A program made the position numbers and the translations under genes. 64,000 nucleotides of DNA, taken from Candidatus Neomicrothrix sp. (lineage in GTDB: Bacteria; Actinomycetota; Acidimicrobiia; Acidimicrobiales; Aldehydirespiratoraceae). This document shows positions 4,234 through 25,775 of the stretch, one piece after another. The stretch is taken from the NCBI GenBank assembly GCA_017852795.1, contig JAFMKU010000006.1, positions 2,448-66,447 on the forward strand, read 5' to 3'. The number at the start of each line of letters is the position of its first letter. Position 1 is the stretch's first letter. The notes beneath the pieces were generated by a model. That model saw nothing but the letters and a program-made list of their open reading frames with translations, made no database searches and was not told where the DNA came from.

Positions 4234-7013
4234 TGGGGAAGTCGTTGGTGATCGTGGAGAGCCCGGCTAAGGCTCGCAAGATCCAGGAGTATCTCGGCGG
4301 AGATTTCGTCGTCGAGTCATCGATCGGCCACATCCGAGACCTCCCCAAAAGTGCAGCTGAGGTTCCTGCCGCCTATCGCAACGAGTCGTGGGCTAAAACC
4401 GGTGTAGATGTCGACAACGGGTTCAAGCCGCTTTATGTCGAAAGCCCAGACAAGAAAGATCAGATTCGGACGTTGCGCCGGCTGGTCAAAGATGCCGACG
4501 AGCTCTATCTCGCGACCGATGAGGATCGTGAAGGTGAAGCAATCGCCTGGCACCTTCTGGAAGTGTTGAACCCGACGGTGCCGGTCCATCGCATGGTGTT
4601 TCACGAAATCACCAAGGACGCGATCCAGGCCGCAGTCAACTCGCCTCGAGAACTCGATCGAAAGATGGTTGACGCTCAGGAAGCGCGGCGAATCATGGAC
4701 CGGCTCTACGGCTATGAGGTCAGTCCGGTGCTCTGGAAAAAGGTCGGCGCGAGTCTTTCGGCTGGCCGGGTGCAGAGCGTCGCTACTCGGGTCGTGGTGC
4801 AGCGAGAACGCGAACGCATGGCGTTCGTGCCTGCCGCCTACTGGGATGTCAAAGGTTCCTTCTCGGGAGCAAACGACGCTGAGGGTCGGGTGTTCGTTGC
4901 TGCGTTGGCGACGATCGATGGCCAGCGTCTTGCCAGTGGCCGGGACTTTGATGACCGAGGCCAACTCACCCGAGCCGACGCCGTGCTGCTCGATCAGGCC
5001 GGGGCTCAGAGTTTGGTGACGTCGCTCGACGGGGTTGCGTTCACGGTTCGGGCCCGCGAAGCAAAGCCGTATCGTCGCCGGCCAGCGGCGCCGTTCACCA
5101 CATCGACGTTCCAGCAGGAAGCCGGTAACAAGCTCGGGTTGAGCGCGCAGATGGCGATGCGGGCTGCTCAGTCGCTCTACGAAAAGGGCCTGATCACCTA
5201 CATGCGAACCGACTCCACGACGTTGTCTGGCGCCGCGGTCAACGCCGCCCGGTCCGCGGTCATGGAGCGTTTCGGTTCGTCGTTTCTTCCCGACGCACCC
5301 CGCCATTACGCAACGAAATCGAAAAACGCTCAGGAAGCCCACGAGGCCATTCGGCCCTCCGGCGACCAGTTCCGTAGCCCGGATGATGTCGCTCGTGAAC
5401 TGGGAAGCTCGAAGTTGGAAGCGTCGGTCTATGGCCTGATCTGGCGCCGCACGGTCGCCTCGCAGATGACCGATTGCGTGGGGGAGACGGTCACTTTGCG
5501 GCTTGGGGCCAACGCCACCGATGGCCGTGACGTGGAGTTCTCGGCTTCGGGAACGGTCATCACCCATCGAGGGTTCCGCGAGGCCTACGAGACAGGCGCC
5601 AGCGACGCTCGCAAGGCCGACAAGACCGACAAATCAAACAAGACCGACAGTGCCGATGACTCCGATGATGACGAGCGACGCTTGCCGCCTCTGAACGAAG
5701 GCGACCGGGTTCAGTTGGCGGGGCCGTTGGAGTTCGAGGGGCACGAAACCCAACCTCCATCACGTTTCACCGAGTCTTCGTTGGTGAAACAACTTGAGGA
5801 ACTCGGTGTAGGTCGGCCGTCAACCTATGCCTCGATCATTGGCACGATCCAAGCGCGGGGTTACGTCTGGAAGAAAGGGTCGGCACTGATCCCGAGCTTC
5901 ACCGCGTTCTCGGTAGTTGCGCTGATGGAAGGGCATTTCCCGAACCTTGTTGACTACGCCTTCACGGCCCGGATGGAAGACGATCTTGACCGGATCGCCG
6001 CTGGTCTCGAAGAAGTTGAACCGTGGCTGGGTCGTTTCTATTTCGGAGAAGGTCCCGAAGGAGAACCGGGTCTGCATGAGAAGGTTTCCACCCGGCTGCC
6101 TGACATCGACGCGCGGCTCGTCAACACCTTGCCGCTGGGGGTCACCGAAGATGGTCGCCCGATCGCGGTTCGTTCCGGCAAGTACGGCCCCTATGTCCAG
6201 CTTGGCGATGGGGCCGTTCCGGAAGAAACAGAAACCGCGTCGATTCCTGATGACATCCCACCCGCGGATCTGACCGTCGAGCTGGCGCTCGAGTATCTGT
6301 CGATGCCCAAAGACGGACGGATCGTCGGGGACGACCCCACGACCGGGCTTCCGATCTTTGCGAAAGCGGGTCGTTTTGGGCCTTACGTGCAGGTGGGGAC
6401 TCACGAGGATTGGGAACCTTCGGGGGAAAAGCCGCCGACCGCGTCGTTGTTTTCGACGATGACGTTGGAGCGCTTGACTCTCGACGATGCGATGGATTTG
6501 TTGTCGTTGCCTCGCACGGTAGGCACTGATCCGGCCGATGGTGAAGCGATTCTGGTCCAGAACGGTCGCTACGGGCCGTACCTCACCAAAGGCAAAGAGA
6601 CCCGTTCGCTCGAAACTGAGGAACAACTGCTGACCGTCACCCTTGATGAGTGTCTGGCGCTTCTAGCTCAGCCCAAACGACGTCGGGGACAGAAGGTCAG
6701 CGCTCCGCTGCGCGAGCTTGGCGATGATCCGGTCACTGGCAAACCAATGGTGATCAAGGACGGGCGGTTCGGGCCGTACGTGACCGACGGCGAGTCCAAC
6801 GCGTCGCTGCGAACCGGCGACACGGTTGAGGAGATCACCGTGGAGCGGGCTGCGGAACTGTTGGTGATCCGCCGGGCCAAGCAGGGCACTAAGAAGAAGG
6901 CCACCAAGAAGAAGGCCACGAAGAAGAAGGCCACGAAGAAGAAAGCGGCCACCAAGAAAGCCGCAGCGAAACGTTCCACCGGCTCAGTGGATCCCTCCCC
7001 ACAGGGGGAGTGA
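4233..7013 (+). CDS. topA: DNA topoisomerase I (type IA), actinobacterial form with GxxGPY C-terminal repeats and a lysine-rich tail
   Basis: TOPRIM start MGKSLVIVESPAKARKI and DEDREGEAIAWH. Active-site region LITYMRTDS. Four C-terminal repeats: SGKYGPYVQLG, AGRFGPYVQVG, NGRYGPYLTKG, DGRFGPYVTDG. Tail is KKKATKKKATKKKATKKKAATKKAAAK. Confidence 0.97.
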   Translation: MGKSLVIVESPAKARKIQEYLGGDFVVESSIGHIRDLPKSAAEVPAAYRNESWAKTGVDVDNGFKPLYVESPDKKDQIRTLRRLVKDADELYLATDEDREGEAIAWHLLEVLNPTVPVHRMVFHEITKDAIQAAVNSPRELDRKMVDAQEARRIMDRLYGYEVSPVLWKKVGASLSAGRVQSVATRVVVQRERERMAFVPAAYWDVKGSFSGANDAEGRVFVAALATIDGQRLASGRDFDDRGQLTRADAVLLDQAGAQSLVTSLDGVAFTVRAREAKPYRRRPAAPFTTSTFQQEAGNKLGLSAQMAMRAAQSLYEKGLITYMRTDSTTLSGAAVNAARSAVMERFGSSFLPDAPRHYATKSKNAQEAHEAIRPSGDQFRSPDDVARELGSSKLEASVYGLIWRRTVASQMTDCVGETVTLRLGANATDGRDVEFSASGTVITHRGFREAYETGASDARKADKTDKSNKTDSADDSDDDERRLPPLNEGDRVQLAGPLEFEGHETQPPSRFTESSLVKQLEELGVGRPSTYASIIGTIQARGYVWKKGSALIPSFTAFSVVALMEGHFPNLVDYAFTARMEDDLDRIAAGLEEVEPWLGRFYFGEGPEGEPGLHEKVSTRLPDIDARLVNTLPLGVTEDGRPIAVRSGKYGPYVQLGDGAVPEETETASIPDDIPPADLTVELALEYLSMPKDGRIVGDDPTTGLPIFAKAGRFGPYVQVGTHEDWEPSGEKPPTASLFSTMTLERLTLDDAMDLLSLPRTVGTDPADGEAILVQNGRYGPYLTKGKETRSLETEEQLLTVTLDECLALLAQPKRRRGQKVSAPLRELGDDPVTGKPMVIKDGRFGPYVTDGESNASLRTGDTVEEITVERAAELLVIRRAKQGTKKKATKKKATKKKATKKKAATKKAAAKRSTGSVDPSPQGE
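6891..6953 (+). repeat. in-frame 15-bp tandem repeat (aagaagaaggccacS x3 plus a degenerate copy) encoding the KKKAT tail of TopA
   Basis: Direct reading: aagaagaaggccacc / aagaagaaggccacg / aagaagaaggccacg / aagaagaaagcggccacc. Confidence 0.9.
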
Positions 7014-8475: not shown

Positions 8476-9084
8476 ATGGCCGGTCTTCTCATTGCTTTCG
8501 AAGGGGCGGATGCGTCGGGGAAATCGACGCAGGCCCGGCGCCTAGCTCAACGAATCGGGGCGACACTAACTTTCGAGTTTGGTGCCACCCCGGTTGGTTC
8601 GGCCATTCGATCCATCCTGCTTGACCCAGCCCATACCTCAATGGATGACCGAGCCGAAGCCTTGTTGGTGATTGCAGACAAAGCACAGCACGTGGCCGAA
8701 CTGGTTGGTCCGGCGTTGGCGCGTGGCGAGACGGTGATCTCTGATCGGTTCACTGCTTCGAGCACCGCCTATCAGGGGTACGGGCGGGGTCTTGACCGGG
8801 CCGTGATCGAATCGATCATGGACTTTGCTACCCATGGGTTGCGGCCCGACCTGACCGTGCTGCTCGATGTTGATTTGGCACTGGCCCGTGAACGCCTCGG
8901 TGATGACATCGACCGTATCGAAGGAGCGGGCGCCGAATTTCATCGGCGGGTCCGAGACGGTTATCTCGAGTTGGCCGCGGCCGATCCGGATCGCTGGCTG
9001 GTGATCGACGCCGGAGGGTCTGTTGAGCAGGTGGCCGCTCGGGTAGATGCCGCGGTCGATTCCTGGCTGGCGGCGAACCGGTGA
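8476..9084 (+). CDS. tmk: dTMP (thymidylate) kinase
   Basis: P-loop LIAFEGADASGKSTQ. DRFTASSTAYQGYGRGL. LID-like region. Confidence 0.9.
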   Translation: MAGLLIAFEGADASGKSTQARRLAQRIGATLTFEFGATPVGSAIRSILLDPAHTSMDDRAEALLVIADKAQHVAELVGPALARGETVISDRFTASSTAYQGYGRGLDRAVIESIMDFATHGLRPDLTVLLDVDLALARERLGDDIDRIEGAGAEFHRRVRDGYLELAAADPDRWLVIDAGGSVEQVAARVDAAVDSWLAANR

Positions 9085-10121
9085 GCTGGGAACGGCTGAT
9101 CGGCCAACCCGAAGCCCAACGCCGTCTGGAACTGGCGGTGCAGTCACCGGTTCACGCCTACTTGTTTGTGGGTCCGGCCGGGTCCGGTAAGCGCCGGGCG
9201 GCCACGATTTTCGCGGGAGAACTGCTGGCGGGTGCCGACCCGGACCGGGCCGAGCGGCACCGCCGTCTCGCCGGGGACGAACACCACCCTGATGTGCACA
9301 TCGTTGACCCGGTGGGAAACAACCTTCGGCGTGAGGAGGAGGCAGAACCGCTGATTGTCGAAGCGAGCCGTTCCCCGCTGGAAGGCGCTCGCAAGGTGCT
9401 GATCGTGAACCGGTTCCACACCGCGACTCCTGCGGCCGCGGCGGCGCTGCTCAAAACCGTGGAGGAGCCACCGGGGCAGGCGGTGTTCGTGCTGCTCGCC
9501 GAGGACGTCCCCGATGAACACATCACCATCGAAAGCCGCTGTACCCGAGTGGATTTTTCGCCGGTTGCCGCCGACGCGATCGCCGAAGCGCTGATCGCTG
9601 AAGGGCTTTGTGACGCGGATCGGGCGGAGGTGGTGGCGGCGGCCGCCAACGGCAACGTCGATCGGGCTCGAGTCTTGGCCACCGACGAACGGTTAGCGGC
9701 CCGGCGCGATGCCTGGTGGTCGGTTCCCGCTCGGTTGGATGGAACCGGGGCTGCGGTCGCGGTGCTGGTCGAGGAGCTCCGGGGCCTCATCGACGACGCA
9801 GGCGACGCCAAAGAACGGCAGCATCGGGCGGAACTCGATGCCCTTGATGAGCGTGAAGAACGGTTAGGGACCCGCGGCTCGGGTCGGCGTGATCTCGAAG
9901 CTCGTCAACGACGCGAACTCCGCCAGTTTCGGACCGAAGAACTGCGGTTCGGGTTGTCAACGCTGGCCGGGCGCTATCGACAGCAGATGATGACCGGCGA
10001 CGAGCGCCCCAGTTTGCTCGGCGCAGTCGACGCCTTACGAGAAACGCAAACGGCGTTGATCCGCAACCCCAGCGAGGCGTTGGCCCTGCAAGCGTTGCTG
10101 CTGCAACTCCCACCGTTGTAG
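9081..10121 (+). CDS. holB: DNA polymerase III subunit delta-prime
   Basis: 4-bp overlap with tmk. AYLFVGPAGSGKRRAA (degenerate clamp-loader P-loop). LLKTVEEPP motif. Conserved tmk-holB order. Confidence 0.85.
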   Translation: MSWERLIGQPEAQRRLELAVQSPVHAYLFVGPAGSGKRRAATIFAGELLAGADPDRAERHRRLAGDEHHPDVHIVDPVGNNLRREEEAEPLIVEASRSPLEGARKVLIVNRFHTATPAAAAALLKTVEEPPGQAVFVLLAEDVPDEHITIESRCTRVDFSPVAADAIAEALIAEGLCDADRAEVVAAAANGNVDRARVLATDERLAARRDAWWSVPARLDGTGAAVAVLVEELRGLIDDAGDAKERQHRAELDALDEREERLGTRGSGRRDLEARQRRELRQFRTEELRFGLSTLAGRYRQQMMTGDERPSLLGAVDALRETQTALIRNPSEALALQALLLQLPPL

Positions 10122-10180
10122 AACCAGGTTGGTTCGCCGTTGAGGATTGGCGCGGTGAGGTTGCTACGGTTCTTGGCTGC

Positions 10181-10253
10181 GCCCGAGTAGCTCAGTTGGT
10201 AGAGCGACGCTCTCGTAAAGCGTAGGTCAGGAGTTCAATCCTCCTCTCGGGCT
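10181..10253 (+). tRNA. tRNA-Thr (anticodon CGT)
   Basis: Hand-folded cloverleaf. Acceptor GCCCGAG/CTCGGGC. D arm GCTC-AGTTGGTA-GAGC. Anticodon arm ACGCT-CTCGTAA-AGCGT (anticodon CGT). Variable loop AGGTC. T arm AGGAG-TTCAATC-CTCCT. Discriminator T. No encoded CCA. Confidence 0.9.
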
Positions 10254-14986: not shown

Positions 14987-15558
14987 CGCTCAACGTTGAC
15001 GCGTACCGTCGGGCTGCGGCGCAGTTCGGTGAGACGGTGGCCTCGTTGACCGACGACGAATGGGCCCGGCCGACGTTCCCGAACGACTGGACTGCGGTTA
15101 CCTCCACCGCGTGGCTGGTCGCCGGCGACGCCCAGTTGGCGTCGGCAGCCCGTGGCGACGGGATTGCGCCGCTGGTCGAGTTTGACTCGGCGGTTCTGGG
15201 ACCGAACCCGGTGGCGTCGTGGCGGGGAACGGCACTGAGCGTGCTGCGGGCGCTCGACGGGGTTGACCTGACGCAGATGGTTAGCCATCCGCAGGGCACG
15301 ATTCGTTTGGGTGATGTGGTCGCGCAACGGGTGAGCGAAAACCTGATTCGGGCGTTTGACATTGGGCGGGCGGTTGGTCGCCCCATCGAGTTGCCAGCTG
15401 AACTTGCTGAGGCCTGTCTGGATTTCTGGGCCGAGCACGGTGAGGCCATTTTGCGGGGCGGGGTGTTCCCGGACCAGCCTCGAGAACCCGCGGCGGGAGC
15501 CGACAGCGTCGAACGGTTCGTGGCGTTGATGGGGCGAGATCCCGAATCGCAGCCCTAA
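14977..15558 (+). CDS. DinB/mycothiol-maleylpyruvate-isomerase-N-like protein (TIGR03086-like)
   Basis: The pattern [20 protein letters not shown]...[11 protein letters not shown] resembles the actinobacterial TIGR03086 family. This is a by-eye call only. It overlaps the guaA end by 10 nt. Confidence 0.55.
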
Positions 15559-15583
15559 ACCGCTCTGGCGACGTTTTCTTTTT

Positions 15584-15632
15584 GTTCACGGAAACGTTGT
15601 TAACGGTCCATGTTGTGGTTGCTCAACGGAAA
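15584..15632 (+). promoter_or_regulatory. candidate Pho-box-like repeats upstream of pstS-1
   Basis: tttGTTCACGGAAAcgtTGTTAACGGtccatgttgtggtTGCTCAACGGAAAtc. The core GTTCAC matches the actinobacterial PhoP/RegX3-type half-site. ACGGAAA occurs twice (15588 and 15626). The region is AT-richer than its surroundings. Confidence 0.3.
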
Positions 15633-15656
15633 TCTGGACCTTTTACCCTGCGCCGC

Positions 15657-16790
15657 ATGCACAAACCATTGAAGAAGACGTTTCGTACGTTGAGTGTTCT
15701 CCTGCTGGCCATGTCGCTGTTGGCGACGGCCTGTGGTGACGATGGCCAGGACGCGTCCCCGGACACGCCGACCACGACCACGGCCGCCAGCACCGATAAC
15801 TCAACGGTTGATAACGAGACGGTTGATCCTGTTTCCGACCTTGAAGGTGATCTTTTGATCTCCGGATCGTCCACGGTCTTCCCGATCGTGCAACGTCAAG
15901 CTGAGGAGTTCTCGGCCGCGAACCCGGGAGTGGCGATCGCAGTTGAAGGGCCTGGCTCGGGAGACGGCGCCGTCAAGTTCTGCAACGGCGAAGTACCGAT
16001 CGCCAATGCGTCTCGGCTGTACAAGGACTCTGAGATGGAGACCTGTGCCGCCAACGGAATTGAGTTCATCGAGATCCGTCGTGGCATTGACGGCATTACG
16101 GTCGTGACCTCGTCGGCCAATGGCGCCATCGAGTGCCTGTCGTTCAACCAGCTGTATGCGCTGATCTCGGAAGACGCCACCGGGTTTGAGTCCTGGGCCG
16201 ATGCCAACGCGCTGTTGGCCGAGATTGGGAGCACCGCCGAATCCCTGCCCGATGCATCGCTCGACATCTTCGGCCCCGGTGAAGAGTCCGGCACCTTTGA
16301 CAGCTTCGCCGAGATCGTGATGGAAGCGGTCGCCAAAGGCAAGACCGGTCTCGACCCCGAATCTCGCGAGTTCTCCACCGGCATTCGCCCGGATTACACG
16401 TCAAGCCCGGACGACAACATCATCATTGAAGGCATCTCCGATGCGGATTACAGCCTTGGCTGGGTCGGCTTCGCGTTTGGGTCGGCGGCTGCTGACGCCG
16501 GCAGTGTGAAGATGATTCCGGTCGCGAAGGAAGATGGAGGCGAGTGCGTGCTGCCGACCCCCGAGACGATCGCGTCGGCCGAGTTCCCGATCGCTCGTTA
16601 CCTGTACACCTACGTCAGCGTTTCAGCAGCGGCTTCTGATCCGGCGGTTGCGGCCTTTGTTGACTACATGATGAGCGACCAAGGCCTCGAGGCGGTTGCC
16701 GGGGTCGGGTACGTCCCGCTGGCCGATGCCGACCAGCAGTTGGCGCAAGCCATTTGGGCTGATCGCGTCACTGGCCGGACCTGGGGCTGA
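15657..16790 (+). CDS. pstS: phosphate ABC transporter substrate-binding lipoprotein PstS (copy 1)
   Basis: Signal peptide plus lipobox MHKPLKKTFRTLSVLLLAMSLLATAC. PstS-family motifs ISGSSTVFPIV, VEGPGSGDG, GPGEESGTFDSF. Confidence 0.9.
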   Translation: MHKPLKKTFRTLSVLLLAMSLLATACGDDGQDASPDTPTTTTAASTDNSTVDNETVDPVSDLEGDLLISGSSTVFPIVQRQAEEFSAANPGVAIAVEGPGSGDGAVKFCNGEVPIANASRLYKDSEMETCAANGIEFIEIRRGIDGITVVTSSANGAIECLSFNQLYALISEDATGFESWADANALLAEIGSTAESLPDASLDIFGPGEESGTFDSFAEIVMEAVAKGKTGLDPESREFSTGIRPDYTSSPDDNIIIEGISDADYSLGWVGFAFGSAAADAGSVKMIPVAKEDGGECVLPTPETIASAEFPIARYLYTYVSVSAAASDPAVAAFVDYMMSDQGLEAVAGVGYVPLADADQQLAQAIWADRVTGRTWG

Positions 16791-16814
16791 TCGCTGCGGC
16801 CAACGTTCGGAAGG

Positions 16815-16851
16815 GGTGAACACCGCGGTTCCCTCCGCCGCGGTGTTCACC
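16815..16851 (+). terminator. perfect 14-bp stem hairpin after pstS-1 (attenuator/terminator-like)
   Basis: GGTGAACACCGCGG-ttccctccg-CCGCGGTGTTCACC. There is no clear U-tract (gtccgttta follows). Confidence 0.55.
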
Positions 16852-16854
16852 GTC

Positions 16855-16885
16855 CGTTTACCTAAATACCGCTGATCGTTTACCT
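16855..16885 (+). promoter_or_regulatory. direct repeat CGTTTACCT x2 spaced 22 bp, upstream of pstS-2 (candidate Pho box)
   Basis: CGTTTACCT at 16855-16863 and 16877-16885. GTTTACC differs by 1 nt from the Streptomyces PHO-box core GTTCACC. The spacing equals two helical turns. Confidence 0.35.
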
Positions 16886-16947
16886 GGTGCTTTCCAACGT
16901 GACAGGTTCCTGCAATACCTTGTGGGAGTGCCGGTGAGGATCAGTCT

Positions 16948-18078
16948 GTGACCGAAACGATCGGGAGTCGACGCCAGCGTCTGGTGTCAATGGGCTTGGC
17001 GTCGCTCGCCGTGGCGGTGCTCGCCGCAGTCACCTACCAACCGGACGACTCGGCCAGTTCGGCGGCTCCGGTCACCGCGGTCGACGAAGGTTCCGAAGCC
17101 GTCACCATCCCGATTGCCGAGTTGGCGGGCGAGTTCCTGATCTCTGGCTCGTCAACCGTGTTCCCGATCGTGCAGCTCCAAGCCGAACGTTTCGCACAAG
17201 AAGCGAGTTCGGTTGCGATCTCGGTCGAAGGCCCGGGGTCTGGCGACGGTGCACAGAAGTTCTGCAACGGTGAAGCCTTGATCGCGAATGCTTCCCGGCT
17301 GTACAAAGATTCCGAGATTGAACTCTGCGAAGCCAACGGGATCGAGTTCATCGAATTGCGGTTGGCAGTGGACGGCATCACGGTCATTACCTCACCGGAA
17401 AACGACGTTCTGGAGTGCCTGTCGTTCAACGACCTCTACGCACTCACGTCCGGCGAAGCCCAAGGGTTCCAGACCTGGTCCGACGCCAACGCTTTGACCT
17501 CTCTGTGGTCGGGAACCACGTTCGCCGACGGGTTCGAACTCTCGGTGTACGGACCGGGCGAAGAGTCAGGAACCTTCGATAGCTTCGCCGAAGTGGTGAT
17601 CGATTCGGTGGCCAAAGGCAAGACCGGTCTTGACGTGGACGCCCGCGAATTCAGTCGGGAGATCCGCCCCGATTACATCTCCAGCCCCGACGACAACACC
17701 ATTTTGAGCGGCATCGGTTCCCAGCAGTATTCGCTCGGATGGGTCGGGTTTGCCTACGCCTCGCAAGCGGCGGCCGCGGGACAAGCCAAGCTGGTCAGCA
17801 TCTCGTTCGACGACGGCGGCTCCTGCGTGGACCCGACCCCGACGACGATCTCATCGGCGACCTTCCCGATCGCCCGGTTCCTCTACACCTACGTCAATCT
17901 CGAAGCGGTCGAGACCAACCCGGCGTTGGCCGCCTTCGTTGATTACATGCTCAGCGAAGAAGGACTGACCGCAGTAGAGGAAGTGGGATACATCCCGCTC
18001 AGCGAAGAGGACCTGAGCCGAACCCGGCTGATCTGGAAGGTCGGTTTGAATGGGACCGGTCAGTGGAGCAGCGAATGA
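16948..18078 (+). CDS. pstS: phosphate-binding protein PstS (copy 2, paralogue of copy 1)
   Basis: Same motifs as copy 1: ISGSSTVFPIVQ, VEGPGSGDGAQKFCNGE, GPGEESGTFDSF. The N-terminus MTETIGSRRQRLVSMGLASLAVAVLAAV has no lipobox Cys; it could be an RR-containing signal or an anchor. GTG start with GAGGA 8 nt upstream. Confidence 0.9.
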   Translation: MTETIGSRRQRLVSMGLASLAVAVLAAVTYQPDDSASSAAPVTAVDEGSEAVTIPIAELAGEFLISGSSTVFPIVQLQAERFAQEASSVAISVEGPGSGDGAQKFCNGEALIANASRLYKDSEIELCEANGIEFIELRLAVDGITVITSPENDVLECLSFNDLYALTSGEAQGFQTWSDANALTSLWSGTTFADGFELSVYGPGEESGTFDSFAEVVIDSVAKGKTGLDVDAREFSREIRPDYISSPDDNTILSGIGSQQYSLGWVGFAYASQAAAAGQAKLVSISFDDGGSCVDPTPTTISSATFPIARFLYTYVNLEAVETNPALAAFVDYMLSEEGLTAVEEVGYIPLSEEDLSRTRLIWKVGLNGTGQWSSE

Positions 18079-19517
18079 CCGAAACGCTCACTTCGCCGAC
18101 CAGCCTTCTGATGGCACCGGCACGCTCACGCTTCGGCCTTCCCCAACGAGCAATGGTGTTCGTTGTCGAGGCGTTGATGTATCTAGTGGTCTGCTTGTTG
18201 GTGGCGCTGGTTGAATACTTCGTGGCGGGGCCGATCACCGATTTTGGCGTGTCGAACTTCTGGCTTGGTCTCGTGATCTACGCCGGTATGGACGGGTACT
18301 CGTGGCCTTCCAGTCAGTCGTTTGCGCAACGGATGGTTGGCGCCTCGGTCCGTCAGATGAACGGGCGACCAGCCGGTGCCATTCGAACCGCGATCCGACA
18401 GGTCACCCGGTTCGGCGGACTGTACGCCATCCCGGTGTTCGTGTTGGATTTCAACGCGGGCTGGGTGGCGCTGTTCGCGGTGCTGGCCGCTGGGCTATGC
18501 GCGGTGGCGCCATTCGGGCGCGCTCCTTGGGATTTTCTGGCGTCGACGATGGTGGTCGAAGGCGTCGTGGGTGGCGAGGGAACGGAACCGGGCCCGGTCC
18601 GTCAAGCCTCGGACCTCCAGCTCGATCGTGGCCGGGCCAACCGGAACCAACGCGCTCGGCGGCTCATGCTGGGCACGGGCCTGTCTTCGGTGGTCGTTAG
18701 TGGCCTCATTGTTTTTTACATCTTCACCGAGGCGTTCTCGTTCGTTGCCGATCAGGAATTTAGCTGGAGTCTCCTGACCGACATTGGTTGGTTCCCGCGG
18801 CGTGGCCAGTTCGATCTTTCCACGCTGTTCGTCGGTTCGTTGTGGGTCACGCTGATTTCCATGGTGGTAGCGGCCCCGATCGGTATCGGTGTGGCGTTCT
18901 ATCTGGCCGAATACGCATCTTCGAAAGTGCAGCGGATCGTCAAACCGATGATCGAGACGCTGGCATCTATCCCATCGGTGGTGCTTGGCCTGTTCGCCAT
19001 CAGCTTCATTTACCCAAATGTGCTCAAACCGGTATTCCCCGGCATCGGGATCTTCTCGTTGTTAGCGGCCGGGCTCGGGGTCGGGGTGCTGACCGTACCG
19101 ATCGTGGCATCCATCTCCGAAGACGCGATGCGCGCGGTTCCTCGGGAACTTCGCGAAGCCAGCTACGGACTCGGGGCCCGGAAGGTAACTACCGCGCTGC
19201 GGGTGGTCTTCCCGGCCGCGCTGTCGGGGATTTCAGCGGCCATCATCGTGGGGATCTCGCGGGCGATCGGCGAAACCATGGTGGTGTTCATCGCAGCCGG
19301 TGGTTCCGGAGGCGCGCTGTTTGAAAGCAACCCGACCGAACCCGGTCAGACCCTGACCGCGGCGATGGCCTCGTTGGGGGCCGGCACCGATTCGGTGGCT
19401 GGTTCCGGTATCGCCTTCCAGAGTCTCTATTTCCTTGGAGCCTTGCTGTTCCTGGTCACCTTGTTGCTCAACGTCCTGTCGGATCTGGTGGTCCGACGAT
19501 TCCGGCAGGTGTACTGA
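18075..19517 (+). CDS. pstC: PstC permease with a ~170-aa N-terminal RDD-like membrane domain
   Basis: The C-terminal ~300 aa is typical PstC (EAA-like loop EDAMRAVPRELREASYGLGARK). The N-terminus has three or four hydrophobic helices plus QSFAQRMVGASVRQMNGRPAGAIRTAIRQ, resembling the RDD family. The ATG at 18075 overlaps the pstS-2 stop (ATGA); the track start is 18063. Confidence 0.85.
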   Translation: MTETLTSPTSLLMAPARSRFGLPQRAMVFVVEALMYLVVCLLVALVEYFVAGPITDFGVSNFWLGLVIYAGMDGYSWPSSQSFAQRMVGASVRQMNGRPAGAIRTAIRQVTRFGGLYAIPVFVLDFNAGWVALFAVLAAGLCAVAPFGRAPWDFLASTMVVEGVVGGEGTEPGPVRQASDLQLDRGRANRNQRARRLMLGTGLSSVVVSGLIVFYIFTEAFSFVADQEFSWSLLTDIGWFPRRGQFDLSTLFVGSLWVTLISMVVAAPIGIGVAFYLAEYASSKVQRIVKPMIETLASIPSVVLGLFAISFIYPNVLKPVFPGIGIFSLLAAGLGVGVLTVPIVASISEDAMRAVPRELREASYGLGARKVTTALRVVFPAALSGISAAIIVGISRAIGETMVVFIAAGGSGGALFESNPTEPGQTLTAAMASLGAGTDSVAGSGIAFQSLYFLGALLFLVTLLLNVLSDLVVRRFRQVY

Positions 19518-20431
19518 TGGCCCCGTCCGAACTGATCCAGAACACGCTGCGGCACCGCAGGCGATCCGACGTCTCCGGGCGGGTGTTTTATGGTCTCCTC
19601 ATCGCTGCGGTCACCATTGCGTTCCTGCTGGTGCTGGTGGTGATGAGCGATGTGGTTCGAGGATCTCTTGATCTGCTGGGCGAACGGGCCTGGGGGTTCT
19701 TAACCTCCCCATCGTCGTCGGATCAAGGCAAGGCCGGGGTGGTTCAGGGCGTTCGCGGCACACTGGTGATCTCGGTGATCGTGGCGTTGACCTTTCCGAT
19801 CGGGATCGGTGCGGCGGTTTACCTTGAGGAGTACGCCGAGGACAACTGGCTCACCCGGTTGATTCAGGTAGCGGTTCGCAACCTGGCCGGAGTTCCCTCC
19901 ATCGTCTACGGCCTGCTCGGGTTGGCGGTGTTCGTGCAGAGCCTTCGCGGGTTGACCGGTGGTTCGTCGATTATCGCTGGTGGTTTGACGTTGGCCGTCT
20001 TGGTCCTTCCGATTGTGGTGATCACTTCTGCTGAAGCGATTCGGGCGGTACCGGCGGCGTATCGCGACGGTGCTTACGGTCTTGGAGCGACCCAGTGGGA
20101 AACCATCCGAACCCAAGTTCTTCCCGCCGCCATGCCCGGGATCTTGACCGGTACGGTGCTCTCAATCGCCCGCGCCGCGGGCGAAGCAGCACCGTTGTTG
20201 GTGGTGGGAGCGGCCCCGTATTACACGACCGGCAACAACGACTTTCTCGAACAGTTGCGAGGCGCGTTTACTGCGCTACCCATGAACATCGCCACGTTCG
20301 CTCGACTTCCCGCTGAAACTTGGCGAGGGCACGCGGCCTTCGCCAGCCTTGTTCTGCTTGTCCTGGTATTCATGATCAACCTGGTTGCGATTGTGGGACG
20401 AGCCCGAATCGCCCGACGCCTCGGGCGCTAA
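19517..20431 (+). CDS. pstA: phosphate ABC transporter permease PstA
   Basis: 1-nt overlap with pstC. EAA loop SAEAIRAVPAAYRDGAYGLGATQWE. Confidence 0.9.
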   Translation: MAPSELIQNTLRHRRRSDVSGRVFYGLLIAAVTIAFLLVLVVMSDVVRGSLDLLGERAWGFLTSPSSSDQGKAGVVQGVRGTLVISVIVALTFPIGIGAAVYLEEYAEDNWLTRLIQVAVRNLAGVPSIVYGLLGLAVFVQSLRGLTGGSSIIAGGLTLAVLVLPIVVITSAEAIRAVPAAYRDGAYGLGATQWETIRTQVLPAAMPGILTGTVLSIARAAGEAAPLLVVGAAPYYTTGNNDFLEQLRGAFTALPMNIATFARLPAETWRGHAAFASLVLLVLVFMINLVAIVGRARIARRLGR

Positions 20432-20452
20432 CTACCAAGAGGACCGACGACG

Positions 20453-21316
20453 ATGACCGATCTGCCAACCCGGCCCACTATTCCGGCTAACACCGGTGTG
20501 CCAGCCAACACCGCTGAACGAACACCGTCGCAACCTTCCTCGGAGGTGTTCAGGACCAGCAACCTCAGCGTCTCCTACGGCGGGGTGCGGGCCATTGCCG
20601 ACGTCAGCATCGACATTCGCGACCGCGAGATCACCGCGTTTATCGGCCCTTCGGGTTGCGGCAAATCAACGGTGTTGCGCTGCTTCAACCGCATGAACGA
20701 TCTGATCCCCACGGCAACAGTCGATGGGTCGGTTTGGTACCACGGCGTTGATCTTTATGACCCGCAGGTTGATCCGGTCGCGGTTCGGCGCCGCATCGGG
20801 ATGGTGTTTCAGAAACCCAACCCGTTTCCCAAGTCGATTTATGACAATGTGGCCTATGGCCCTCGGGTGGGGGGGATGAAGGCCGATCTTGACGAGGTTG
20901 TCGAATCTTCACTGATCCGCGCTGGCCTCTGGGACGAAGTCAAAGACCGATTGCAGGAGTCGGCGACGGGAATGTCAGGTGGCCAACAGCAGCGCCTCTG
21001 TATTGCCCGAGCGATCGCTGTCAACCCGGATGTGCTGCTGATGGATGAGCCGTGTTCGGCGCTGGACCCGATCGCCACTGGCCGAATCGAGGAGTTGATG
21101 AAAGAAATCCAGAACGATTACACGATTGTCATCGTGACCCACAACATGCAGCAGGCGGCACGAGTTTCGGACCGCACCGCGTTTTTCACTGCGGAACTCG
21201 ACGAGGGAACGGGGCAACGACGTGGACGGCTGGTTGAATACGCTGACACGGTGACGATCTTTTCCGACCCGGAAGATGACCGTACTGAGGCCTACGTGAC
21301 TGGACGTTTCGGATGA
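20453..21316 (+). CDS. pstB: phosphate ABC transporter ATP-binding protein PstB
   Basis: Walker [10 protein letters not shown]. Signature [14 protein letters not shown]-like ([14 protein letters not shown]). Walker [12 protein letters not shown]. PstB-typical [12 protein letters not shown] start. Confidence 0.95.
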
Positions 21317-22764
21317 GCGAGAACCGCAGCCAACTCGATGAGCGGCTTCACATCATTGAAGACCACCTTGTGCAGATGATGGAGATGGTCTCCGAACGAA
21401 TCAGCGACGTCACCTCGGCGATGCTGGAGGGCGATATTGCCAGCGCCGACCGGTTGATTATCGGCGACGATGACATCGATCTGCTCTCCACCCAGGTCGA
21501 AGAAGCCTGCGTGGCGACGCTGGTGCGGGAAGCTCCGGTAGCAACCGATCTGCGGTTTGTCGTCGGCGCTTTGCACGCCAACTCCGACATTGAACGCAGC
21601 GGCGACCTCGTCGCGAACATCGCCAAAGCGGTTGGTCGTTTGCAGGGAGCGAACCCTGACGACCGCATTCGTGAACTCATCGCGCAGATGTCCGATCAGG
21701 CCGGCGAGTTGTTCCGACGGGTGAGCGAGGCGTTTCGGGCCCGCGACACCGCGCTGGCCATTTCGGTGGCTGACATGGATGACGTGCTTGACGACCTTCA
21801 CTACCGCTACATCCATTACGTGATTCAGGAAGCCCGCCGAGCTGACCTCGACCCGCAACATGCCTTGCAGCTGGCGCTGATCGGTCGCTTCTATGAACGG
21901 ATCGGCGACCACGCCGAAAACGTTGGGGAACGAATTCGCTACATCGTCGATGGCTGGGTTCCGGAGGCACAAGCTGCGGAACGGGCGAAAGCTCGCCAGT
22001 CGGGTGAGTTGGCGACACCCAGTCCCCGAGGGGTAGCGGTGATCGGGGCGCTGGCTGCCGAACGTCGCATTGACGCCATCAGACGAGATTTCGTCGCCAA
22101 CGTGAGCCACGAGCTAAAGACTCCGGTCGGCGCGATGTCGCTTCTGGCCGACACTCTGGCGGGCGATGTCAGCGGAGCCGATCGGGAACGGCTCGGCGAG
22201 ATGCTGATGAAGGAAGCCAAACGGGTTGAGGACATTATTGACGACCTGCTGGAGCTCACCCGACTCGAAGAATCCGAGCCGGAAACGGAACTTCTTGACG
22301 TCGATGACATCGTGATGCGGTCGGTGGAAAAGGTGCAAGTGTTTGCCCTTACCCGCAGCGTTGAACTGGCCACGGTGGGTCTTCCTAGCGATCGGCAGGT
22401 GATGGGAGATCGACGGGCACTGGTTCGAGCTATGGCCAACCTGATCGACAATGCGGTGCGTTACAGCGACCCGAACTCGCAAGTCACGATTTCGGTGGTG
22501 GATCTCGGTGGGTCAGTTGAGCTCGGGGTCCGAGATCATGGGGTGGGTATTCCCCGCGCCGAACTGGAGCGGGTCTTTGAGCGCTTCTACCGGGTCGACC
22601 GGGCCCGCAGTCGAGAGACCGGAGGCACGGGGCTTGGGCTCGCGATCGTTCGCCACGTCGCCACCAACCACGGGGGGCGGGTTTCGGTTGATTCCAAGCC
22701 GGGAGAAGGGTCTGAGTTCGTCGTGACCCTGCCCTGCGTTCCCCGAAACTCACCCACTAGCTGA
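21313..22764 (+). CDS. soluble sensor histidine kinase with a complete N-terminal PhoU domain (PhoU-HisKA-HATPase_c fusion)
   Basis: Residues ~1-215 carry two PhoU repeats ([30 protein letters not shown]...[13 protein letters not shown] and [20 protein letters not shown]). H-box [12 protein letters not shown] (His ~266, nt ~22108). [24 protein letters not shown]. No hydrophobic segments. ATGA overlap with pstB and 1-nt overlap with the response regulator. Confidence 0.85.
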
Positions 22765-23465
22765 TGAGTGAACTGGTCAGCGTCCTCGTAGTGGACGATG
22801 AACCATCGTTTCGCGAGGGTCTTCGCCAAGCGCTGAAAAGCGAAGGCTTCCTTGTACACCTCGCGGCCGACGGGGAAGAAGGATTGGAGGCGTTCCATAC
22901 CTTTCACCCTGATTTGGTGCTGCTCGACGTGATGCTGCCTCGGATGTCCGGGATTGACGTCTGCCGCGAAATCCGAGCCATCGCTAACACTCCGGTCATC
23001 ATGGTGTCGGCCCGCAACGAAGAAATCGACGCGGTGGTCGCGCTTGAGGTCGGGGCCGACGATTACATCAGCAAGCCGTACCGGGTCCGCGAACTGGTAG
23101 CCCGGATGCGAACCGTGCTGCGGCGGGCTTCAGCAACCGCACCGACGTACACCGATGACCCGGGGCACACCTTGGAAGTCAACGGCATCTCGCTCGACCG
23201 TGAGCGGCACATTGTTCGGGTTGACGGAGAACTGGTGCAGCTTCCACTCAAAGAGTTCCAGCTGCTGGGGTTGTTGCTGGAAAACGTAGGGATCGTGGTG
23301 ACGCGCCAGACACTGATCGACCGAGTCTGGGGTTATGACTATGTCGGTGACACCAAAACCCTTGACGTTCACATCAAGCGGCTTCGGGCCAAGGTGGAAC
23401 CCAACCCGGACCAGCCGCAACGGATCGTGACGATTCGAGGGCTTGGCTACAAACTCGAAGCGTAA
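22764..23465 (+). CDS. OmpR/PhoB-family response regulator (RegX3/PhoP-like)
   Basis: Receiver VLVVDDEPSF...LDVMLPRMSGIDVCREIR. Winged-helix C-terminus TLDVHIKRLRAKVE...IVTIRGLGYKLE. Confidence 0.9.
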   Translation: MSELVSVLVVDDEPSFREGLRQALKSEGFLVHLAADGEEGLEAFHTFHPDLVLLDVMLPRMSGIDVCREIRAIANTPVIMVSARNEEIDAVVALEVGADDYISKPYRVRELVARMRTVLRRASATAPTYTDDPGHTLEVNGISLDRERHIVRVDGELVQLPLKEFQLLGLLLENVGIVVTRQTLIDRVWGYDYVGDTKTLDVHIKRLRAKVEPNPDQPQRIVTIRGLGYKLEA

Positions 23466-23516
23466 AGGCACCTCCCGGACCGCCGCTGTCCTTGGTGGTC
23501 GCTAGGGTGACAACCG

Positions 23517-25775
23517 ATGCCTGAATCGCTACTCCTCGCCGGCCTGAACCCCGCCCAACATGATGCGGTAGTCCACGATTCCGGGCCGTTGCTGGTGGTG
23601 GCTGGTGCCGGGTCAGGAAAGACCCGGGTCCTCACCCACCGCATCGCCTACCTGATCGAGACCGGGTTGTCGCCGTACGAGATCCTGGCCATCACCTTCA
23701 CCAACAAGGCGGCCGGCGAGATGAAGGAACGGGTCAGCAACCTTGTCGGCCCGGTCGCCGAACGGATGTGGGTTTCGACGTTTCACTCGGCCTGCGTTCG
23801 GATCCTGCGCCGCGACGCCGAACGGCTTGGTTTTCCGTCGACATTCTCGATCTACGACCAGTCTGATGCGGTCCGGCTCGCCGGTTATGTGATCCGCGAC
23901 CTCAACCTTGATCCGAAACAATTCCCGCCTCGAAGTGTGCACGCTCAGATTTCGATGGCGAAGAACGAGAACACCAGCGCCCAACGGTTTGCCGAACGGG
24001 CCGAGCCGGGGAGAAACCAGCAGGTCGCCGAGGTCTACCTCGAATACCAGAAACGACTTCAGGCCGCTGGAGCAATGGATTTCGACGACCTGTTGGTCCG
24101 GACCACTCAGCTCTTTCGCGACCACCCCGATGTGTTGGCGTCATGGCGGCACCGGTTCCGGCATGTGCTGGTCGACGAATATCAAGACACCAACCCGGTG
24201 CAGAACGATCTGGTGTTGATGTTGGCTCAAGAACACCGCCAGGTGACCGTTGTTGGCGACAGCGACCAGTCGGTCTATGCGTTCCGAGGGGCCGACATTC
24301 GCAACATTCTCGAGTTCGAAAGCGCCTTCCCTGATGCCAGCATCGTGGTGCTCGAACAGAACTATCGCTCCACCCAGTCGATCCTTGATGCCGCCAACGC
24401 AGTGATCGCCCAGAACATGGGGCGCAAACCCAAAGAGCTCTGGACCGAACGGGGCGGAGGCGAGAAGCTGGTTCGCCACCACGCCGACGATGAAGCCGAC
24501 GAAGCTCAGTTCGTGGCGACCGAACTCGCCCGCCTGCACGACAGCGACCACCGGCCCTGGCGAGAGATGGCGGTCTTTTACCGCACCAACTCGATGTCGC
24601 GGGTGGTTGAGGAATATCTGGTTCGGGCTGGCATTCCCTATCGGGTGGTTGGCGGTACCCGGTTCTATGACCGCCGCGAAATCAAAGACGCGTTGGCCTA
24701 TTTGCGGGCCGTGGTCAACCCGACCGACGAAGTCAGCGTCAAGCGGGTGCTCAACGTTCCCAAGCGAGGGGTCGGAGACTCGTCGGTTGCCAAACTCGAT
24801 CTCTGGGCGATGCGTCACGGCGAAACCTTCGATCAGGCGCTGCTGCATTTCGATCAGGCGGGGGTTAGTGGCCGGGCCGCGACGGGCATCGAAAAGTTTC
24901 TGGCGGTGACTACCGAGATTCGATCGCTCGATGCCTCACCGGCAGTGATTCTCGAAGAGGTGCTGGAACGCTCGGGGTATCTCGCCGAATTGCAGGCGGA
25001 ACGGTCCATCGAGGCCGAAGGTCGCGTCGAAGCGTTGTCAGAACTGGTCGGGAACGCACGCGAATACGAGACGGTCATCGAGTTCTTGGAGCAGGTGAGT
25101 CTGGTGAGCGACACCGATGTGCTGACCGACGACGATTCCAGTGTCAGCTTGATGACCTTGCACGCAGCCAAAGGCCTTGAGTTTCCGGTGGTGTTCCTGG
25201 TCGGGCTCGAAGATGGTGTGTTCCCGCACGTGCGGGCCCTTGGTGACCCAGCCGAACTCGAAGAGGAGCGGAGATTGGCCTACGTCGGGATTACCCGCGC
25301 CATGGAACGCCTGTATCTCAGCAGCGCCTGGAGTCGGTTGGTGCACGGCCAAACCCAGTACAACCCGCCGAGTCGGTTCCTTGACGAGATCCCGGCTGAG
25401 CTCCTTGATGAACGAAGAGGCCAGCGCCCAAGTGGAGGATCTCGCACCACTGGTGCTGGGTCGTATGGACGGGGCCGGTCCGCTGGGTTTGAACGCAGCA
25501 CCGAAACGTTCGGCCGAACCTTTGGCGGGTCGGGCCGCGGCGATTCCAGCGAAACGTCCCGAGAGCCTTCGCGACCCACCCCGACCGGTCCGGTACCTTC
25601 GGGAGCCGATGCGTTAGGGCTTCGGGTTGGCGACGACGTTCGGCACGCCCAGTGGGGCGACGGGGTGATTCTTTCCATCAAAGGAGAAGGCGACTCGGCT
25701 GAAGCCAGCGTGCATTTCCCGTCGGTGGGGCAGAAGCAGTTGCTGCTGAGTTGGGCACCACTCGAACGGGTCTAG
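23517..25775 (+). CDS. pcrA: ATP-dependent DNA helicase PcrA/UvrD
   Basis: LNPAQHDAV, AGAGSGKTRVLTHR, VLVDEYQDTN, VGDSDQSVYAFRGA, TLHAAKGLEFPVVF, YVGITRA. Confidence 0.92.
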   Translation: MPESLLLAGLNPAQHDAVVHDSGPLLVVAGAGSGKTRVLTHRIAYLIETGLSPYEILAITFTNKAAGEMKERVSNLVGPVAERMWVSTFHSACVRILRRDAERLGFPSTFSIYDQSDAVRLAGYVIRDLNLDPKQFPPRSVHAQISMAKNENTSAQRFAERAEPGRNQQVAEVYLEYQKRLQAAGAMDFDDLLVRTTQLFRDHPDVLASWRHRFRHVLVDEYQDTNPVQNDLVLMLAQEHRQVTVVGDSDQSVYAFRGADIRNILEFESAFPDASIVVLEQNYRSTQSILDAANAVIAQNMGRKPKELWTERGGGEKLVRHHADDEADEAQFVATELARLHDSDHRPWREMAVFYRTNSMSRVVEEYLVRAGIPYRVVGGTRFYDRREIKDALAYLRAVVNPTDEVSVKRVLNVPKRGVGDSSVAKLDLWAMRHGETFDQALLHFDQAGVSGRAATGIEKFLAVTTEIRSLDASPAVILEEVLERSGYLAELQAERSIEAEGRVEALSELVGNAREYETVIEFLEQVSLVSDTDVLTDDDSSVSLMTLHAAKGLEFPVVFLVGLEDGVFPHVRALGDPAELEEERRLAYVGITRAMERLYLSSAWSRLVHGQTQYNPPSRFLDEIPAELLDERRGQRPSGGSRTTGAGSYGRGRSAGFERSTETFGRTFGGSGRGDSSETSREPSRPTPTGPVPSGADALGLRVGDDVRHAQWGDGVILSIKGEGDSAEASVHFPSVGQKQLLLSWAPLERV

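Follow-up and report, generated by a model that had tools for sequence, protein, structure and literature searches.

A PhoU domain in place of the membrane anchor and PAS domain of a PhoR-type histidine kinase: a conserved gene fusion in uncultured Acidimicrobiia

In Escherichia coli, Salmonella and Mycobacterium smegmatis, PhoU acts on the phosphate-responsive histidine kinase (PhoR or SenX3) via the PAS domain of the kinase (PMC4423584, PMC9239213, PMC12301784). Deletion of the PAS domain leaves the SenX3 of M. smegmatis locked ON and phosphate-blind, PhoU1 together with inorganic phosphate (Pi) pushes SenX3 to phosphatase activity in vitro without Pst, and PhoU-dependent control of SenX3 is independent of Pst both in vivo and in vitro (PMC12301784). 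Whether the PhoU/PstB/PhoR-SenX3 switch senses the conformation of the transporter or cytoplasmic phosphate has been disputed for decades, progress having been hampered by the membrane-bound nature of the kinase and the transience of the complex. Here we describe a 64,000-nucleotide (nt) stretch of DNA from Candidatus Neomicrothrix sp. (GenBank assembly GCA_017852795.1, contig JAFMKU010000006.1; hereafter the window), in which a single open reading frame (ORF) of 483 amino acids (aa) joins a PhoU domain to a histidine kinase core. Comparative genomics identifies it as a real, conserved fusion in which PhoU stands in place of PhoR's membrane anchor and PAS domain, as the initial annotation of the window, made from the sequence alone, had proposed. 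That annotation knew of no characterised example, and we likewise found no published description of a PhoU-histidine-kinase fusion in the full-text literature, with subscription-only papers and domain-architecture databases lying outside the search. The parts and the pathway are known; the architecture, which drops a domain considered essential, is undescribed, and it is certainly visible in Pfam-type tables.

The fusion gene (21313..22764, + strand) begins with ATG, and its product lies outside the usual size of stand-alone PhoU proteins (~210-260 aa). Pfam PhoU (PF01895) matches it in two stretches (E 7e-33), and NCBIfam phoU_full (TIGR02135) scores 162.7 bits against a cutoff of 130.25, with aa 6-214 corresponding to profile positions 1-209 of 212. 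The full two-repeat PhoU domain first placed at residues ~1-215 is therefore present, as a six-helix bundle encoded by 21328..21954 (+). The kinase half comprises HisKA/DHp at aa 257-320 (22081..22272, +; PF00512, E 2e-14), with phospho-acceptor H266 (nt 22108-22110) and an H-E-L-K-T phosphatase motif, and HATPase_c at aa 365-475 (22405..22737, +; PF02518, E 2.5e-31), with N, G1, F and G2 boxes. The core is thus of the ordinary type that had been described, and the peptide strings originally quoted are all present in the ORF. Top-scoring kinase models were PnpS (NF046044, 239.3 bits) and PhoR_proteo (TIGR02966, 225.5 bits) of NCBIfam; these matches span only aa ~241-474 and fall below the whole-protein cutoffs (400 and 334.2, respectively) because the N-terminal sensor part is missing. 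No Pfam PAS match was obtained in the 483-aa protein. The maximum Kyte-Doolittle mean over 19 residues (KD19) is 1.07, compared with 2.93 in an unfused Ca. Poriferisodalis kinase (locus L017), so that no transmembrane (TM) segment is present; the absence of both a hydrophobic segment and a PAS region is in keeping with the first reading, and the protein should be soluble, as was also proposed. Sequence searches of the PDB gave separate matches for the PhoU half (1T72, 4Q25, 1XWM, 2I0M and 1SUM), Foldseek placed HK853-type DHp-CA cores as the best structural matches of the kinase half, and neither search returned a structure combining the two.

We next consider how widely the architecture occurs. 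From 5.8 billion proteins (NCBI, JGI, ENA and Logan) grouped into 90%-identity clusters, PhoU, HisKA and HATPase_c were found together in all of the at least 120 best clusters, at 59-100% identity and in some cases on Mb-scale contigs. When the aligned PhoU domains of the fused clade were used to scan the species genomes of GTDB, 80 loci were obtained: the 39 with at least 56% PhoU identity all carry single fused ORFs with just 18-28 aa between the PhoU end and the kinase core, and the 41 with at most 50% PhoU identity all have separate phoU and kinase genes. None of the refuting findings named in the initial annotation was obtained: the PhoU match is strong, no ORF is split among the 39 independent species genomes, and the fusion is common in one clade yet undescribed. 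Carriers are labelled Acidimicrobiales, Acidimicrobiaceae, Acidimicrobiia, Ca. Microthrix, Ca. Aldehydirespiratoraceae or Actinomycetota/Actinomycetes, and include a 5.39-Mb chromosome (OZ244195.1) and a 5.17-Mb contig (CBDCGK010000004.1); isolate names suggest that many are apparently marine. Among 1.84 billion 50%-identity representatives, searched exhaustively with HMMER, only three full-length PAS-less fusions were recovered (P0121, P0122 and P0124), alongside two PhoU-PAS-kinase fusions lacking TM segments, P0123 (positions 1141-2898 of locus L081, on a 4.6-kb contig) and P0127.

Two observations on labels accompany this survey. One of the 39 carriers is labelled Gammaproteobacteria and has probably been mis-binned. 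L003/L196 (CAXMSE010000014.1) and L081 (CAZHMF010000156.1) combine an Acidimicrobiia-type fusion, a response regulator (RR) and uvrD/pcrA synteny in metagenome-assembled genomes (MAGs) labelled Gammaproteobacteria and Anaerolineaceae; these labels probably reflect mis-binning or mislabelling. The pipeline names of the ~480-aa fusions at NCBI and JGI are 'phosphate signaling complex protein PhoU' or 'phosphate transport system regulatory protein PhoU'. A PGAP name of "PhoU" alone hides the histidine-kinase half, and so leaves an annotation gap.

The unfused relatives indicate how the fusion arose. Ca. Poriferisodalis L017, L014, L004 and ~35 further Acidimicrobiia loci share the order pstS-pstC-pstA-pstB-phoU(-phoU)-kinase-RR, with the phoU stop often overlapping the kinase start, and their kinases usually have a hydrophobic helix at the N-terminus and, after it, a PAS-like region, for which Pfam cutoffs are reached only by L014 (L004 and L036 lie below). 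In the fused protein the whole of PhoU is kept, including its C-terminal tail (alignment A1), and kinase homology restarts where the unfused kinases have their last PAS strand and connector (GAVAVMADRTDGARVDEVRRDF), from which it follows that ~170-190 residues, containing the TM helix and nearly all of the PAS domain, were lost. The aligned sequences show, in short, that in one clade phoU and the neighbouring kinase gene merged into one ORF without TM and PAS regions. Outside Acidimicrobiia the closest kinase cores are Streptomyces/Arthrobacter-type PhoR (43-50% identity), where phoU is adjacent on the other strand. Neighbour-joining (NJ) trees with 100 bootstraps, reconstructed separately for the PhoU and kinase halves, each recover the core fused clade as monophyletic with 100% bootstrap, and the internal order of the two halves is largely congruent in the first NJ trees. 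P0122 is sister to the core clade. P0124 joins unfused kinases of the Ilumatobacteraceae type only in the kinase tree and lies beside P0122 and the core clade in the PhoU tree, whereas both trees place P0123 and P0127 within unfused lineages. The simplest reading is a single fusion-plus-deletion followed by radiation, besides which a small number of rare fusions arose independently or reflect sequencing errors; P0123, P0127 and P0124 represent independent fusions or, among the singletons, perhaps sequencing errors. A stepwise path, with fusion first and PAS loss later via P0123/L081 and P0127, was rejected, since these branch with unfused lineages and are therefore not ancestors of the core clade.

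The unfused loci themselves vary. Several kinases possess a PAS region but no hydrophobic N-terminus, the TM helix having already been lost (L036 977-2050, L085 6786-8018 and L103 5956-7011), with a maximum KD19 of 0.9-1.2 in L085 and L103, consistent with the finding that SenX3 needs no membrane anchoring (PMC12301784). In many unfused Acidimicrobiia (L005-L008, L014, L085-L099 and others) a tandem pair of phoU genes separates pstB from the kinase, reminiscent of mycobacterial PhoU1/PhoU2; at this locus the fused clade has the fused copy alone. No second PhoU or kinase was found in the 64-kb window, nor within 8 kb in L001-L003, and among the 80 GTDB loci no fused-genome assembly is listed twice, which argues weakly against a second PhoU or kinase. 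The L017 kinase of Ca. Poriferisodalis (8696-10201) has, unlike all others, a ~70-90-residue Pro/Ala/Asp-rich insertion within HATPase_c (alignment A1 columns ~360-430), which Pfam consequently splits into two stretches.

To characterise the constraint on each half, 88 fused PhoU domains were compared with 30 unfused ones, and 88 fused kinase cores with 58 unfused ones. Invariant in both fused and unfused PhoU sequences are the E/DxxxD-type metal/phosphate motifs of helices 3 and 6 (E94-R-S-G-D98 and R192-x-Y-E-R-I-G-D-H200, with F at x in the window protein) and the acidic clusters D52/53/56 and D156/157/160. In the kinase half, H266, E267 and T270 (S-H266-E-L-K-T270-P) are invariant in fused and unfused proteins, as are residues of the ATP-binding boxes (N376, N380, D408, G410, G412, F422, F425, G438, G440 and G442). 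This invariance argues that the kinase/phosphatase and the PhoU domain attached to it are both functional. As judged by conservation, both halves are still under purifying selection, and at the level of sequence the motif set of a HisKA-family bifunctional kinase/phosphatase is complete. The fused clade also possesses its own fixed residues at 18 PhoU and 10 kinase positions, the latter including R239, G240, D290, E320, R372 and K383R; several of these positions are near-invariant as another residue in unfused proteins (Q73E, R108G, Y111Q, V185L, V202E and K383R).

A linker of ~45 aa had been described between the halves; a linker is indeed present, but it is not uniform and comprises three parts of unlike conservation. 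First is the conserved C-terminal tail of PhoU (21955..21999, +), with a helix at aa 217-229, homologous to the tail of stand-alone PhoUs. Next comes an acidic/Pro-rich hinge at aa 230-238 (22000..22026, +), poorly conserved, 7-17 aa long across the clade owing to insertions and deletions, and marking the ancestral gene junction; the distance from P217 to R251 accordingly varies between 33 and 44 residues. Last is a conserved junction element at aa 239-256 (22027..22080, +) with the motif RG(L/V)AVI..(A/S).., which aligns with GAVAVMADRTDGARVDEV of the unfused kinases and, by that alignment, is what remains of the final PAS strand and its connector, running into DHp helix 1. Mean conservation in the fused clade is 0.91 for the junction element, 0.84 for DHp and 0.74 for CA, compared with 0.57 (the lowest), 0.71 and 0.65, respectively, in unfused kinases. 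By this measure the junction element has gained constraint after the fusion and become the most constrained stretch of the kinase half. An AlphaFold2 (AF2) monomer was generated for P0001, two substitutions (I50M and A101V) away from the window protein, using the 88-sequence alignment. Both domains are confidently modelled, the PhoU half as six helices with a predicted local distance difference test (pLDDT) of ~95, and the overall predicted template modelling score (pTM) is 0.52. Values of pLDDT below 50 occur at aa 235-259, covering only the end of the hinge, and together with the pTM they mean that no rigid helical transmission is predicted.

Taken together, we consider it probable that the fusion is a soluble, bifunctional PhoR-type kinase/phosphatase with its own PhoU domain as input module. 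The DHp-CA core would be kinase-active by default, like PAS-deleted SenX3 in M. smegmatis. Under phosphate-replete conditions the attached PhoU would dock in cis, or in trans within a dimer, on DHp/CA and the junction element, turning the kinase into an RR-phosphatase; the docking state of PhoU might be one loaded with phosphate/metal at the conserved RxxERxxDH site, one in contact with PstB, or a combination of the two. Covalent attachment and remodelled surfaces could stand in for the lost affinity of the PAS-PhoU contact, and phosphorylated RR would activate the pst operon and its own genes through a PHO box. Contact with PstB is likely retained but not obligatory. Such direct gating of DHp-CA by PhoU is proposed in view of reported PAS-independent contacts, namely a contact of PhoU with the kinase CA domain in a docking and direct-coupling analysis (DCA) model (PMC4423584) and binding of the kinase domain by R184 of Salmonella PhoU (PMC9239213). 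Several points weigh against this reading. PAS-less control by PhoU would be an extrapolation, the PAS domain being required in both studied systems. The AF2 monomer leaves PhoU unplaced against the kinase core. The E. coli/Salmonella contact residues A147, R148 and R184 are unconserved in fused and unfused Acidimicrobiia alike, the R148 equivalent being E/D in 94% of unfused sequences and T/S/A in fused ones. Furthermore, all 39 GTDB carriers are uncultured MAGs, and the phylogeny is by NJ only. Elsewhere in the domain, E. coli PhoU R201 corresponds to the invariant R196 of the fusion; a further contact residue, 'E121' (Gardner 2015), was dropped owing to a numbering mismatch, residue 121 of MG1655 being His.

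Within this probable kinase/phosphatase the source of the signal may be sought in PstB or in cytoplasmic phosphate. A first possibility, which we place somewhat short of an even chance, is that the PhoU domain docks on PstB, bringing the kinase to the Pst transporter, and the state of the kinase follows the transport cycle, so that external phosphate is sensed. The window fusion is translationally coupled to pstB, whose stop overlaps the fusion start as first noted (GGATGAGC, ATGA), and among the 35 informative fused loci of GTDB, 28 have pstB at a distance of -18 to +57 bp from the fusion. The placement directly after pstB thus holds for the window and is typical of the family, but it is not universal: six fused loci lack a pst gene in ~3 kb upstream, and a seventh in its 1.2 kb. 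An orphan pstB is kept beside the fusion without nearby pstA or pstC at three GTDB loci and at L242 (L178, L179, L189/L241 and L242), and the two tested (L241 and L242) are bona fide PstB by TIGR00972 (357 and 380 bits; cutoff 343). Coupling to the transporter would also accord with the PhoU-PstB interaction established in E. coli (PMC4423584) and with an N-terminal extension of PstC that co-occurs with the fusion. Against it stand the six to seven fused loci without an upstream pst gene, the Pst-independence of PhoU-dependent SenX3 control in M. smegmatis (PMC12301784), and the ancestral nature of pstB-phoU adjacency, the retention of which may therefore be inertia. The original statement that the kinase reads the state of the Pst transporter directly is accordingly not established, with pstB adjacency in its favour and the pst-less loci and mycobacterial data opposed.

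Alternatively, the PhoU domain might bind cytoplasmic phosphate, with metal, and control the kinase alone, leaving PstB no signalling role; we regard this as tenable, if appreciably below an even prospect. It is favoured by the invariance of the proposed phosphate site (RxxERxxDH) and the ExxxD motifs, by the in vitro effect of M. smegmatis PhoU1 and Pi, by the existence of fused loci unlinked to pst, and by the predicted solubility of the protein; it fits poorly with the orphan pstB genes kept beside the fusion, and we know of no PhoU homolog in which direct phosphate binding has been structurally demonstrated. A related and more doubtful proposal is that the fusion constitutes a complete, one-polypeptide cytoplasmic phosphate sensor with PAS-independent gating, for which the orphan PstB would be a dedicated signalling partner and no transporter subunit. 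The orphan PstBs may be signalling-dedicated paralogs. Their genes form three-gene modules of orphan pstB, fusion and RR (L241 4728-7688, with pstB at 4728-5543, and L242 2741-5790; also L178, L179 and L189), and metabolic genes of no evident relation lie upstream of these modules.

In the bacteria studied, a Pho system that is permanently ON is harmful. This bears on a third, improbable, reading in which the two functions do not communicate, PhoU only braking Pst and the kinase being constitutive or transcriptionally regulated only. While the constitutive activity of PAS-deleted SenX3, the flexible hinge and the lack of a predicted inter-domain contact in the AF2 model would fit such an arrangement, it conflicts with that deleterious effect, with the rise in junction constraint after fusion (0.91 compared with 0.57), with the clade-specific fixed substitutions in both halves at otherwise invariant positions, and with the invariant phosphatase motif, which implies regulated switching. 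Finally, an assembly or sequencing artefact, in which a frameshift or chimeric join merged neighbouring phoU and kinase genes, is already refuted for the core fused clade: phoU and kinase abut or overlap in relatives such that one indel could merge them, and P0223 resembles a frameshifted product, as the singleton PhoU-PAS-kinase forms P0123/L081 and P0127 could too, but this PAS-less fusion recurs in 39 independent species genomes and at least 120 clusters across NCBI, JGI, ENA and Logan, its clade is monophyletic with congruent halves, and no frameshift can produce a deletion of ~170-190 residues.

In the window, the fusion forms part of a + strand pst operon, with intergenic distances of -4 to +21 bp from pstS2 onwards. 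Two paralogs of pstS were identified, the first (15582..16790; PBP_like_2, E 3.7e-33) encoding a phosphate-binding lipoprotein with a lipoprotein-like signal (LLATAC|G) in its translation and a true start that is probably the ATG near 15657, and the second, pstS2, at 16948..18078 (PBP_like_2, E 4.6e-33). These are followed by pstC (18063..19517; BPD_transp_1 at aa 274-481 only), pstA (19517..20431; BPD_transp_1 and synteny) and pstB (20453..21316; TIGR00972 380.3 bits, cutoff 343.2). Downstream, the fusion stop overlaps by 1 nt the start of a cognate OmpR/PhoB-family RR (CTGATGAGT, TGATG), the second of the two overlaps in the initial annotation; this RR (22764..23465; Response_reg and Trans_reg_C) has a counterpart after the kinase in every fused and unfused locus.

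Further to these genes, pstC carries a ~170-aa N-terminal, RDD-like membrane extension (nt ~18063-18620). Homologous extensions occur in all three fused loci examined (the window, L001 4400-6166 and L002 4732-6243) and in none of nine unfused loci, in which pstC is 313-366 aa long; matches of the extension to RDD (PF06271) are weak and below cutoff (E 0.0055 and 0.0027). The extension may represent a second innovation of the fused clade, perhaps tied to the lost membrane anchor of the kinase.

Examination of the regulatory DNA revealed a PHO-box-like operator (16845..16884, +) upstream of pstS2, of the form GTTCACCgtcc GTTTACCtaaa ... GTTTACC in an 11-nt register. It consists of a pair directly 5' of pstS2 (GTTCACCgtccGTTTACC) and a further GTTTACC, in phase and 33 nt away from the first unit. 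GTTYACC-N4-GTTYACC has a single match in the 64 kb, with 0.07 expected and 6 of 100 shuffles reaching one, and 11-nt GTTYACC repeats also occur upstream of pstS in fused and unfused relatives (L001, L002, L004 and L017). The PHO boxes of Streptomyces PhoP, described by Sola-Landa and colleagues, reportedly consist of 11-nt GTTCACC units. We take the window repeats to match this layout and presumably to link the system to PhoP-type regulators; it suggests autoregulation, in that the RR may control its own pstS2-CAB-fusion-RR operon via the putative PHO box. Right after pstS1 there is also a perfect 14-bp inverted repeat (16815-16851; GGTGAACACCGCGG ... CCGCGGTGTTCACC, 9-nt loop), the right arm of which overlaps the first PHO-box unit and the left arm of which is a reversed PHO unit; it could form an RNA hairpin setting the ratio of pstS1 to downstream genes, or provide additional regulator sites. 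A direct repeat, TTGTTCACGG-N5-TTGTTAACGG, lies at 15582-15606, ~50 nt 5' of the probable pstS1 start. Its consensus TTGTTMACGG has two exact copies in 64 kb, both adjacent, and was set aside as an unproven regulatory motif, there being no enrichment at one mismatch (10 compared with 6.3). A scan of 15300-23700 for promoter and terminator motifs gave none beyond chance.

These results bear on a pathway in which the PAS domain has been reported essential for control by PhoU in E. coli and M. smegmatis. That this domain should be dispensable in the fusion is more informative than the Rosetta-stone argument originally drawn for a PhoU-PhoR contact; the fusion on which that argument relies is real, but its value is modest because the contact has already been shown experimentally (PMC4423584, PMC9239213). 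Were the fusion still phosphate-responsive, PhoU could act on DHp/CA directly, and the interface would be indicated by the clade-specific substitutions and the exceptionally conserved junction element. A soluble 483-aa fusion would offer a one-protein in vitro assay and a tractable structural target, and the orphan pstB-fusion-RR modules a natural test of PstB as a signalling partner. If a self-sufficient sensor proved true, PhoU itself would be the phosphate sensor and the PAS domain of PhoR/SenX3 a mere docking adaptor, and the site of sensing would be settled. The restriction of the fusion to uncultured Acidimicrobiia, many of them apparently marine, places it where phosphate limitation is ecologically important.

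Among known systems, NtrB/PII provides a soluble kinase/phosphatase in which a small signalling protein, by binding the catalytic core, determines the balance of the two activities; its accessory protein is separate and the families are unrelated, so that the parallel is an analogy only. Streptomyces/Arthrobacter PhoR-PhoP differs in having a separate, divergently transcribed phoU and a PhoR whose H-box is preceded by ~150 additional residues and that bears a hydrophobic segment at its N-terminus, with no Pfam PAS in the two checked. E. coli and Salmonella PstSCAB-PhoU-PhoR-PhoB shares with the window PstB, PhoU, a PhoR-type kinase and the pstSCAB-phoU neighbourhood; in contrast, its PhoR is membrane-bound by two TM helices with a PAS domain bound by PhoU via A147/R148 (PMC4423584, PMC9239213), and phoBR of E. 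coli is unlinked from pst. Mycobacterial SenX3-RegX3 with PhoU1/PhoU2 (PhoY) is likewise an actinobacterial phosphate two-component system (Seung et al. 2025, PMC12301784), resembling the fusion in kinase core type, downstream OmpR-family RR, a dispensable membrane anchor and, as proposed for the fusion, a shift to phosphatase by PhoU with phosphate; there, however, PhoU is separate and the SenX3 PAS domain essential, whereas here PhoU is covalent and the PAS domain absent. The unfused Acidimicrobiia (Ca. Poriferisodalis L017, L014 and L004) have an orthologous locus with the same gene order and PHO-box-like repeats, at 40-50% identity to the fusion in both halves, and differ in having two genes, a kinase with TM and PAS regions, often a tandem phoU, and a PstC without the extension.

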